Assembly: GCA_964016885.1 (NCBI GenBank)
Contig: OZ024740.1
Span: forward strand, 65,100,001 to 65,164,000
DNA length: 64,000 bases
Direction: 5' to 3'
DNA from: Eledone cirrhosa
Lineage: Eukaryota
The translations under genes and the position numbers were made by a program. Positions 41,431-44,559 of this stretch are shown here, one piece after another; position 1 is the first letter of the stretch; each line of letters opens with the position of its first letter. The notes under the pieces were generated by a model. It was not told the DNA's origin, searched no databases, and was given only the letters and a program-made list of their open reading frames with translations.

Positions 41431-42850
41431 AGTATTTTCCGTTGTGTTGTAATATAAATATTACACACAGTAGATTATCAGCTCACGTAGAGTTTGCTCG
41501 ACGGTTCCAGTTGTAGTTCCAAAAGTAATTTGTAGTTCCAAAAGAAAAATAGAAAGATATGAATGGATAGAGTTTAGTTGAAAGGAATTTATTGACACGT
41601 GTTTCTATAACAGTTACATAACCTAAAACAGCTGCTATCTACACACTTTTAGTTATGCAGACATTCAACATTTCATTGTTATTATTTACTGTCATTTCAT
41701 CAGATGTATATATATATATATATATATGCATATATATATATATATATATATATATATATATATATATATATATATATATAAGTAAAAGGGATATTTAATT
41801 TGTTTGTAATTCAACAAACATAAATGTTTATAACTCATTCAGACCACCCGTCAAGTTTCTGGAGTAAATATTCAATGATATCAAATAAATGGAAACTATA
41901 TATATAAAACCATATTTATTCTATTATACACACTCACACACACACACACACACAATACACACACTACACACGCACACACACACACACATATATATATATA
42001 TATATATATATATATATATATATATATATATATATATATATATATATATATATATATACATATATATCTATATACATATATATATATACATGTATATATA
42101 TATATATATACGTATGTATGTATACGTACATACATATATGTATACAGACGTACAGTAGCATGCATATATATATATATAAATATATATATATATATATATG
42201 TATATATATATATATATACATATATACATACAGGTACACATACATATATGCACGCATCAGTTTAGCGGACGCTTATTATAACGCCCCTTTGTTCGTTTGT
42301 AAACAAACTGAACAGCCTGAATTTATGCCATACGGTGTTAAGGCAACCACGTCACCTTTTTGTTCAACACTGACACAGGAACGATGTACTAGTTTCAAGC
42401 TTGTTAGCTATCATCAGCACCGTATACCCATCTTCCAGATAGTTGAACGTTCGGAAGTATATACTTTCCTTATGAAAATTAACGGCTGAGCAGCCTAATT
42501 TGCATATTGAGTGAGTTAAATCGGTCAGGCATACCGAAAACGATAAGTTGAAAAAAATGAAAACGAAATTTCATTTCTCACTCTTAGTATGGCACTTACT
42601 TAAATGTAAGTATGTATGTATACGTACATACATATATGTATACAGACGTACAGTAGCATGCATATATATATATATATATATATATATATATATATATATA
42701 TATATATATATATATATGTATATATACATATATACATATATACATACAGGTACACATACATATATGCACGCATCAGTTTAGCGGACGCTTATTATAACGC
42801 CGCTTTGTTCGTTTGTAAACAAACTGAACAACTATTTGGCAGATGGGTAT

Positions 42851-42893
42851 ATGGTGCTGATGATAGCTAACAAGCTTGAAACTAGTACATCGT
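42851..42893 (+). ncRNA. Minimal type I hammerhead ribozyme motif
   Basis: ATGGTG-CTGATGA-TAGC TAACAA GCTT-GAAAC-TA-GTA-CATCGT. Confidence 0.78.
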
Positions 42894-43423
42894 CCTGTGT
42901 CAGTGTTGAACAAAAAGGTGACGTGGTTGCCTTAACACCGTATGGGATAAATTCAGGCTGTTCAGTTTGTTTCCAAACGAAGAAAGCGGCGTTATAATAA
43001 GCGTCCGCTAAACTGATGCGTGCATATTTGTATGTGTACCTGTATGTATATATGCATATATATATATATATATATATATACATATATATATATATATATC
43101 TATATATATATATATATATATATATATATATATATATATATATATATATATATATATATATATATATATATATATATATATATATGCATGCTACTGTACG
43201 TCTGTATACATATATGTATGTACGTATACATACATACTTACATTTAAGTAAGTGCCATACTAAGAGTGAGAAATGAAATTTCGTCTTCATTTTTTTCAAC
43301 ATATCGTTTTCGGTATGCCTGACCGATTTAACTCACTCAATATGCAAATTAGGCTGCTCAGCCGTTAATTTTCATAAGGAAAGTATATACTTTCGAACGT
43401 TCAACTATCTGGCAGATGGGTAT

Positions 43424-43466
43424 ACGGTGCTGATGATAGCTCACAAGCTTGAAACTAGTACATCGT
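43424..43466 (+). ncRNA. Minimal type I hammerhead ribozyme motif
   Basis: ACGGTG-CTGATGA-TAGC TCACAA GCTT-GAAAC-TA-GTA-CATCGT; 6-bp stem I, palindromic ACTAGT. Confidence 0.8.
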
Positions 43467-44559
43467 TCCTGTGTCAGTGTTGAACAAAAAGGTGACGTGG
43501 TTGCCTTAACACCGTATGGCATAAATTCAGGCTGTTCAGTTTGTTTACAAACGAACAAAGCGGCGTTATAATAAGCGTCCGCTAAACTGATGCGTGCATA
43601 TATGTATGTGTACCTGTATGTATATATATATATATATATATATATATATATATATATGCATGCTACTGTACGTCTTTATACATATATGTATGTACGTATA
43701 CATACATACTTACATTTAAGTAAGTGCCATACTAAGAGTGAGAAATTAAATTTCGTTTTCATTTTTATTCAACTTATATATATATATATATATATATATA
43801 TATATATATATATATATATATATATATATATATACACACACACACATATATATATATACATATAAATATACATATATATATATATACATATGCATATATA
43901 TATATGTAGATGTTATATTTAATTTGTTGGGATACAACAAGCAAATATTTTTATAGCTGATATAAAGCGCTCAACAAATTATTGGAGTAAAATTACAATA
44001 TATTAACAAATGGAAACTTTATTTGTAAAACCACATTTATTTCATTATACATATTTCAAGTACAACAAAGCAATTCTTTAAGGGTATGTCAATATTTGTT
44101 TATAAAACTGATCTATATTATATTTCATCTGATGGAAGCGCACCATAATTTGCTTTGGTGTCCTTGAAATATGTATAATGAAATAATTATGGTTTTATAA
44201 ATATAGTTTGCATTTGTTAATATATTGTGTATATATATATAATTATATATATATATATTTATTAAAATAACAGATTAAAGTTTAAGCAAAGAATCGCTGC
44301 TTTCACCTTTAACGGGATTTTCTGAAACTAACAAAGTAAATCTGCGAACGCAGAAGTGAATATTTAAAAAAACGTTGCAACCGGAGGAAGACAGGAAGAC
44401 GATACTTTGGTTCGTGGAAACGTTCCCTGGCAAAGAACGGGAAAAAACGAATATAATACGTCATTATATATAAATACACTATATATATATGTATTTACAT
44501 ATTTAAATACACACACATATACATATATATATACATATATGTTGCCAATAAATATATAT

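Follow-up and report, generated by a model that had tools for sequence, protein, structure and literature searches.

A non-coding, hammerhead-bearing tandem unit inserted head to head between (TA)n tracts of Eledone cirrhosa, with a PLE-type footprint

What mobilises animal retrozymes, and whether their RNA circles serve as templates, are questions still argued from co-occurrence and trees (bioRxiv 10.64898/2026.07.22.740005; PMC7229834). A palindromic array of hammerhead-bearing units in Eledone cirrhosa raises both at a single locus: what kind of element is it, and by which proteins and from what kind of RNA was it copied? The window analysed here is a stretch of 64,000 nucleotides (GenBank assembly GCA_964016885.1, contig OZ024740.1, positions 65,100,001 to 65,164,000), and all positions below are counted within it. 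A preliminary description had proposed retrozyme-like, non-coding units in tandem, whose hammerheads would act as dimers, and this is supported here. In the reading that we consider probable, the array is an insertion from a non-coding, high-copy family, made in trans by the RT and endonuclease of an autonomous Penelope-like element (PLE), with multi-round copying of a circle as the favoured route. That the unit is a non-autonomous, PLE-mobilised element is, in our judgement, very probable.

The insertion is about 1.7 kb long, non-coding, and composed of two head-to-head arms of a 431-nt unit together with (TA)n tracts. It had been placed at 42110..43775; the place is right, and the exact ends are 42112 and 43777. 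Its features are as follows.

41988..42111, no strand: left flanking (TA)n tract, probably the target of the insertion
42112..42163, minus: L2, unit positions 1-52, the short 3' end of the left arm
42164..42230, no strand: internal (TA)n tract, 67 nt
42231..42661, minus: L1, full 431-nt unit with 3 private substitutions
42381..42423, minus: hammerhead L1, core at 42417, GUA at 42389-42387
42662..42746, no strand: internal (TA)n tract, 85 nt
42747..42830, minus: L0, 5'-truncated unit (positions 348-431), without a hammerhead
42829..42830, no strand: head-to-head inversion junction with 2-nt microhomology (CA)
42829..43042, plus: R1, 5'-truncated unit (positions 217-431) with 6 private substitutions and 1 deletion
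42851..42893, plus: hammerhead R1, core at 42857, GUA at 42885-42887, with a C-to-T change that weakens stem I
43043..43185, no strand: internal (TA)n tract, 143 nt
43186..43616, plus: R2, full 431-nt unit, taken as the reference, with 3 private substitutions
43399..43485, plus: predicted extended stem-I hairpin carrying hammerhead R2
43424..43466, plus: hammerhead R2, core at 43430, GUA at 43458-43460, N7 at 43434, loop 2 at 43442-43445, palindrome ACTAGT at 43454-43459
43617..43657, no strand: internal (TA)n tract, 41 nt
43658..43777, plus: R3, unit positions 1-119, the long 3' end of the right arm
43710-43777, plus: 67-nt tail-like extension in R3, missing from the left arm
43778..43905, no strand: right flanking (TA)n tract, directly bordered by an older family C element that bears a hammerhead

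Written in unit positions, the right arm reads 217-431, TA143, 1-431, TA41, 1-119 on the hammerhead strand, and the left arm reads 348-431, TA85, 1-431, TA67, 1-52 on the minus strand. The two arms are in-register mirror images separated by a 128-nt spacer, the outer ends of both run into (TA)n, and the 3' end of the right arm exceeds that of the left by 67 nt. The joint of unit end, (TA)n and unit start occurs four times in the array at the same point, which indicates that the monomer is a defined unit with a microsatellite inside; with its variable TA tract it measures 472-574 nt. The GC content of the unit is low (38.5%). No ORF was found in the array outside the microsatellite frames, the five longest all crossing a microsatellite, and no ORF for an RT or a GIY-YIG endonuclease was found in 42100-43780.

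Three hammerheads lie where they had been reported, with cores CTGATGA...GAAAC-TA-GTA at 42857 (+), 43430 (+) and 42417 (-). The two plus-strand GUA sites (42885-42887 and 43458-43460) are 573 nt apart, as previously measured, although as a unit spacing this figure is specific to the locus, being 430 nt plus the 143-nt TA tract. The stem III palindrome is likewise ACTAGT (ACUAGU in RNA). Several details were corrected. ACGGTG, said to be present in every copy, reads ATGGTG in the first plus copy (R1), where the C-to-T change leaves stem I with two G-U pairs; the supposed TAGC/GCTT stem is replaced by a stem II of AGCT/AGCT with a 4-nt loop and a U.U mismatch beneath; and the motif called minimal is of type I but not a strict min-HHR, since a small palindromic helix III is kept. 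Its full make-up is a 6-bp stem I with a G-U pair, CUGAUGA, the U.U mismatch, a 4-bp stem II, GAAA and ACUAGU. R1, R2 and L1 pass a strict type I descriptor and L0, L2 and R3 are truncated short of the hammerhead, so that every full tandem unit carries one; two hammerheads stand in a row on the plus strand only (R1 and R2). Six motifs in the window pass this descriptor, three of them in the array, compared with 0.02 per shuffle in 100 dinucleotide shuffles, and a motif with both the palindromic stem III and the 6-bp stem I was absent from all 100. The covariance search that had been suggested as a check gave no Rfam hammerhead match at the gathering score in the whole window; Hammerhead_HH9 matched two of the three copies weakly (E 0.22 and 0.75; 18.6 and 16.9 bits against a gathering score of 52), and the other Rfam E-value matches in the window were discarded as microsatellite noise.

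On its sequence, the array is a non-LTR retrozyme by the operational definition of 2026, in a preprint that describes animal retrozymes as non-autonomous PLE derivatives of 51-972 bp (bioRxiv 10.64898/2026.07.22.740005). It shares with metazoan non-LTR retrozymes a non-coding, low-GC tandem of high copy number, a type I hammerhead and two consecutive hammerhead units, and a PLE origin has been proposed for retrozymes (PMC7229834; bioRxiv 10.64898/2026.07.22.740005); the U.U mismatch at the base of helix II recurs in axolotl HHR_Amex2 (PMC7229834). Unlike those retrozymes, its monomer of 472-574 nt includes a variable (TA)n tract and exceeds the 150-450 bp given in 2020 (Cervera and de la Pena 2020, PMC7229834), although it falls within the 2026 range; the array also lies in a head-to-head palindrome with a tail. 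Abundant retrozyme circles have been described in coral, mussel and axolotl (PMC7229834). The min-HHR of metazoan PLEs (PMC4209133) has the same conserved core, palindromic 15.2-16.2 region and dimer model, the last of which is also reviewed in PMC6765202. As described in PMC4209133, however, min-HHRs have no helix III or loop 3, a long helix II (7-8 bp in Schistosoma) and a G10.1-C11.1 pair, whereas the array motif has a small helix III with a UA loop, a 6-bp helix I, a 4-bp helix II, and U.U at the base of helix II in place of the G10.1-C11.1 pair. Chlamys non-autonomous PLEs such as MRC1 (PMC8557442) resemble the array in being non-coding, PLE-mobilised and multicopy with head-to-tail insertions; they differ in being algal and mostly devoid of canonical hammerheads, with a 3' end that matches an autonomous partner. 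The family itself was not found in the literature searched on cephalopod or octopus hammerheads and on inverted or microsatellite-bearing retrozymes, where paper supplements may list such motifs, and the words 'hammerhead' and 'ribozyme' are absent from the main text of the Octopus vulgaris repeat annotation (PMC13282606).

The pieces of the array differ by 14 substitutions and two single-base gaps, every one of them private, at about 1% divergence; this count leaves out three differences in L2 beyond unit position 52. Between the two full units, which mirror each other, 6 of 431 sites differ. In the public sequencing run X1, 17 sites of the unit vary at 10-90%, and at all 17 the array pieces that cover the site (2 to 4) share the same letter. 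Taken together, the shared haplotype and the exclusively private changes indicate that the array is likely to be the product of one recent event from one template type, and they exclude an exact fold-back artefact. R1 carries 6 of the 14 substitutions (P 0.016, post hoc). Gene conversion was rejected as the cause of its extra changes, since L0 has no substitution although it mirrors the part of R1 that holds three of the six. Of 134 sites compared, 0 show a difference inherited from the template, a test of little power (P 0.07 for a source 1% diverged and 0.45 for 0.3%).

Genome-wide copy number had been suggested as a check, and public runs point to a multi-copy family. The unit or part of it is contained in 20 of the 24 runs listed in a run search, across 15 studies, none recorded as RNA; the unit (43186-43616) was compared with four of the 24 (X1, X7, X20 and X24). 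In X1, 4,378 contigs match it, a count from one run rather than from a genome, with a summed depth of 0.29-1.72 million where readable; such counts and depths are not copy numbers, and X1 need not be the species of the window. By likeness to the unit, 1030 of these contigs are at 99% or more, 1463 at 95-99%, 1536 at 90-95% and 349 under 90%. Eight single pieces shown for X1 have depths of 13-74, and the figures together suggest thousands to tens of thousands of unit copies. It had been considered that the units might always be simple pLTRs attached to coding PLEs. The copy described here has no coding ORF, and none of the 4,378 X1 contigs, 267 of which lie only partly on the unit, runs on into unlike sequence, in a comparison that passed over 43186-43253 as repeats, left out 104 loose ends and contained no contig spanning the whole unit. 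X1 depth is flat, with no rise towards the 3' end of the unit, and diverged contigs (8-11 differences) overlap each other across 43263-43448. From the flat depth, the absence of run-on and these overlaps, the monomer layout is likely to be the main form, also in diverged subfamilies. X7 and X20, which carry other organism labels, gave six contigs each at depth 2-19 over 43254-43616; these traces may represent a low-copy relative, transfer or foreign DNA. X24 gave no match in 12.8 million reads, a result that carries no weight. Some X20 contigs match the hammerhead alone and then run into unlike sequence (share 0.41), which suggests a related family. Scans of metagenome collections returned 0 and 0 matches and a scan of a prokaryote genome collection returned 0; the single match in a viral contig collection, without stem I or stem III, was taken as chance.

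Variation in X1 also bears on the ribozyme itself. The hammerhead of R2 caps a hairpin predicted to span 87 nt (z -2.4; 7 of 200 shuffles equally stable). All five X1 variants at 10-90% within this hairpin, N7 and loop 2 included, fall on its 18 free positions (P 2e-4), as do five of the six at 5% or more (P 1e-3); the structure was predicted from one copy, the test was chosen after the data had been seen, and contig depths stood in for frequencies. A narrower test, of 0 variants at 38 constrained positions, was not significant (P 0.16). Two rarer variants retain pairing as G-U, two others break pairs (43418 at 8% and 43427 at 1.4%), and one loose-end consensus from 10 X1 contigs turns the G-U pair of stem I into A-U. 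No core position has a common variant in X1. The pattern is good, though not decisive, evidence that the predicted hairpin fold matters for the spread of the family. The 5' truncation of the right arm (42829) lies 3 nt inside the base of the predicted hammerhead hairpin, which may be chance.

Folding predictions suggest how such hammerheads might act. The best fold of each monomer is predicted to be inactive, its core being paired with stem III (GUGCUG with UAGUAC); the minimum energies of the hammerheads in this fold are -8.4 to -8.7, compared with -4.7 (R1), -6.2 (R2) and -6.5 (L1) for the active fold without helix III. The hammerheads are predicted to cut only in pairs. For three right-arm transcripts the predicted active cis-dimer of R1 and R2 lies 6.9-13.9 kcal/mol above the minimum; a transcript spanning both arms is predicted to form a long duplex, and the dimer then lies 431 kcal/mol above the minimum. 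For stem I, the models give a pairing of no more than 0.03 in R1, 0.13-0.56 in R2 and 0 in whole-locus RNA. In these models a 573-nt RNA could be released only from a transcript that starts near the central TA tract. This copy is therefore probably a poor source of it, the more so because stem I of R1 is weakened and read-through RNA would pair with the antisense arm, and we think it improbable that the array itself yields detectable 573-nt RNA. A back-junction test would not discriminate for circles, since the sequence across the junction of a circle recurs in any tandem transcript left uncut. Multimers are unlikely to stem from polymerase III, given the T7 run at 43290. The sequences flanking the internal TA tract (43590-43698) are predicted to pair, turning the (UA)n hairpin into a long rod; this low-complexity pairing is likely to be chance.

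The insertion has much of the footprint of endonuclease-bearing PLEs. These are described as leaving a partial tandem, an inverted 5'-truncated copy and a one-sided tail, with a bias to microsatellites (PMC8557442; PMC3846280), at targets that are AT-rich or microsatellite and often show no discernible duplication. The array has a partial tandem with an inverted 5'-truncated copy at its 5' end, a one-sided tail-like extension, a (TA)n microsatellite target on both sides, a microhomology joint and hammerheads with a palindromic helix III, as in these PLEs (PMC8557442, PMC3846280, PMC11167929). It differs from them in having neither an RT nor a GIY-YIG ORF, and in the length of the extension, 67 nt versus 30-40 nt in the published PLEs. 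Work with the purified anole PLE protein (PMC11167929) showed cleavage and extension of both DNA strands at AT-rich targets, with reverse transcription beginning inside the RNA at two sites, the gap between which becomes the tail; the anole hammerhead needs protein, and its cleavage is dispensable for insertion in vitro. By analogy, unit positions 52 and 119 may be read as internal start sites. A predicted hairpin lies immediately 5' of each, position 52 following an AC-rich arm, which is no more than a resemblance. Family C offers a parallel, with three short and three long 3' ends among the six arms examined and one of each in both palindromic insertions. The earlier proposal of mobilisation in trans by a PLE RT accordingly gains from the footprint, the high copy number and the constraint on the ribozyme hairpin, and lacks a partner of similar sequence: the unit has no clear similarity to the PLE relics of the window (best z 2.4, in one of four comparisons), and candidate homology to the relic at 1064-3934 and to families B, C and D came down to low-complexity matches. 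A 5' splice donor at 43248, like that of the Drosophila Penelope pLTR intron, was dropped, as it arises in 15% of shuffles.

In the mechanism that we propose, two hammerheads of a source array would pair through ACUAGU and cut at GUA, and the released monomer would be ligated into a circle. A PLE protein would cut both strands of a TA tract, and each cut strand would prime inside the RNA, at unit positions 119 and 52. The circular monomer would be copied more than once round, giving two cDNAs of 949 and 719 nt that pass intact cleavage sites, stop at unit positions 217 and 348 and join head to head via CA. Priming on both strands is the somewhat likelier origin of the mirror arm; its in-register mirroring is also compatible with fold-back of the first cDNA, an origin that we consider rather unlikely. 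The right arm crosses two intact cut sites, which argues for a template that was a circle, an uncut multimer or jumped, and against one cut linear monomer. A circle has close to an even chance in our estimate, an uncut multi-unit transcript is quite possible though we would not expect it, and template jumping or another route is decidedly unlikely. The circle is put slightly ahead because arrays need rebuilding each round and because circles are documented in coral, mussel and axolotl.

The strongest competitor retains the PLE-type element and dispenses with the circle: the template would be an uncut multi-unit linear transcript, and the hammerhead would serve as a switch, slow or aided by protein, or as a conserved fold for binding. 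The anole PLE inserts normally in vitro even when its hammerhead is mutated, it copies chiefly unprocessed RNA, and 0 RNA-seq reads end at the cut site (PMC11167929); the inactive best fold predicted for the monomer fits this account, and a young, homogeneous source array would leave an identical single haplotype. Among Xenopus dimer elements, one of nine cleaved in vitro (bioRxiv 10.64898/2026.07.22.740005). Linear copying with 5' truncation would, however, shrink arrays each round unless they were rebuilt, and abundant circles in other retrozymes (PMC7229834) and a core without common variants in X1 also weigh against it, so that we regard this account as unlikely. Under another account, the units are just 3' ends (pLTRs) left by truncation of a coding PLE present in abundance, and stacked partially in tandem. 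Such ends are where solitary or inverted hammerheads of animals usually come from (PMC4209133); coding PLE relics do lie in the window, and X1 is unreadable over 43186-43253 with 104 loose ends outside view. Independent truncations would vary, yet the unit end meets its own start at one point four times, and the flat depth towards the 3' end and the zero share into unlike sequence in X1 make this explanation improbable.

We give the same low standing to insertion of one solo unit followed by amplification and inversion at the DNA level, through unequal crossing-over or slippage in the TA tracts, and fork fold-back. Li et al. 2026 propose a satellite-birth model with local amplification (bioRxiv 10.64898/2026.07.22.740005), TA tracts are recombinogenic and here range from 41 to 143 nt, and the arms mirror in register around the 128-nt spacer. 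With no substitution common to pieces, however, the duplications would have to be near-simultaneous; moreover, the outer ends stop within the unit, on TA, and similar tandem and inverted layouts occur in the unrelated hammerhead families B and C. An origin of the palindrome as a fold-back artefact, in the library or the assembly, is hardly credible: inverted repeats that are long and contain TA tracts assemble poorly and no X1 contig spans the unit, but an artefact would copy exactly, whereas the full units differ at 6/431, tract lengths are unequal and the ends are asymmetric. The most specific form of the circle reading, a high-copy circular-RNA retrozyme that carries its own target microsatellite in the monomer and is inserted by a PLE enzyme that primes on the circle from both cut strands, we consider doubtful. 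If it were true, new (TA)n targets would come with every insertion, and the palindrome with its tail would be direct genomic evidence of PLE proteins reverse-transcribing retrozyme circles. Otherwise this is one of several such families in one 64-kb window and a matter of routine repeat annotation. The element is of a known kind; its points of interest are that a young, abundant, retrozyme-type monomer bears a clear PLE-type insertion footprint and an internal microsatellite.

Its neighbours in the window are related in kind. A PLE relic with RT and GIY-YIG domains and a CX4CX2C linker lies at 1064-3368, within a broken ORF element (1064-3934) that is interrupted by a SINE-like insert at about 1701-1893. 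This element carries a decayed hammerhead-like motif at 3751 with the same U.U base of stem II; the motif stands 153 nt before a TA tract, compared with 156 nt in the unit, without clear sequence similarity. A PLE-type relic at 52202-53826 has a weak RT match (52202-53800) and a CX4CX2C linker, and a relic at 61370-61846, without a Pfam match, is presumably PLE-like. The CX4CX2C kind of linker has been tied to microsatellite bias in Neptune elements (PMC8557442). Family B (30310-32762, minus strand) comprises three tandem 623-nt units with internal (CA)n(TA)n. Its hammerhead-like motifs have a long stem II region and the palindrome ACCATGGT, with the core intact in two of three; GUA spacings are 723 and 803 nt, and a 250-nt inverted piece lies at the 5' end. 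The family is older (94-96% alike) and has the same layout as the 42112-43777 array. Family C, found at 24856-26735, 41862-41930, 43901-44223, 56688-56925 and 62330-62448, bears hammerheads and has two recurrent 3' ends on (TA)n; two hammerheads of its 1.9-kb palindrome pass the descriptor. Its small palindrome adjoins the array, which sits in TA tracts between family C pieces.

Further observations concern other parts of the window. A SINE resemblance suggests an octopus as host. One hammerhead-like motif, at 44729-44695 (-), belongs to an inverted pair (44566-45151) in which its mirror copy, near 44998, has decayed. The stretch 36450-37239 contains tandem duplications that are imperfect and 70-230 nt long, and beside them a CTGATGA...GAAA motif at 36397-36368 (-) fails the type I descriptor. 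An LTR retrotransposon at 45913-51321 (-) encodes RT, RNase H and integrase, and its terminal repeats are 98.9% alike over 174 nt, which indicates that it is young.
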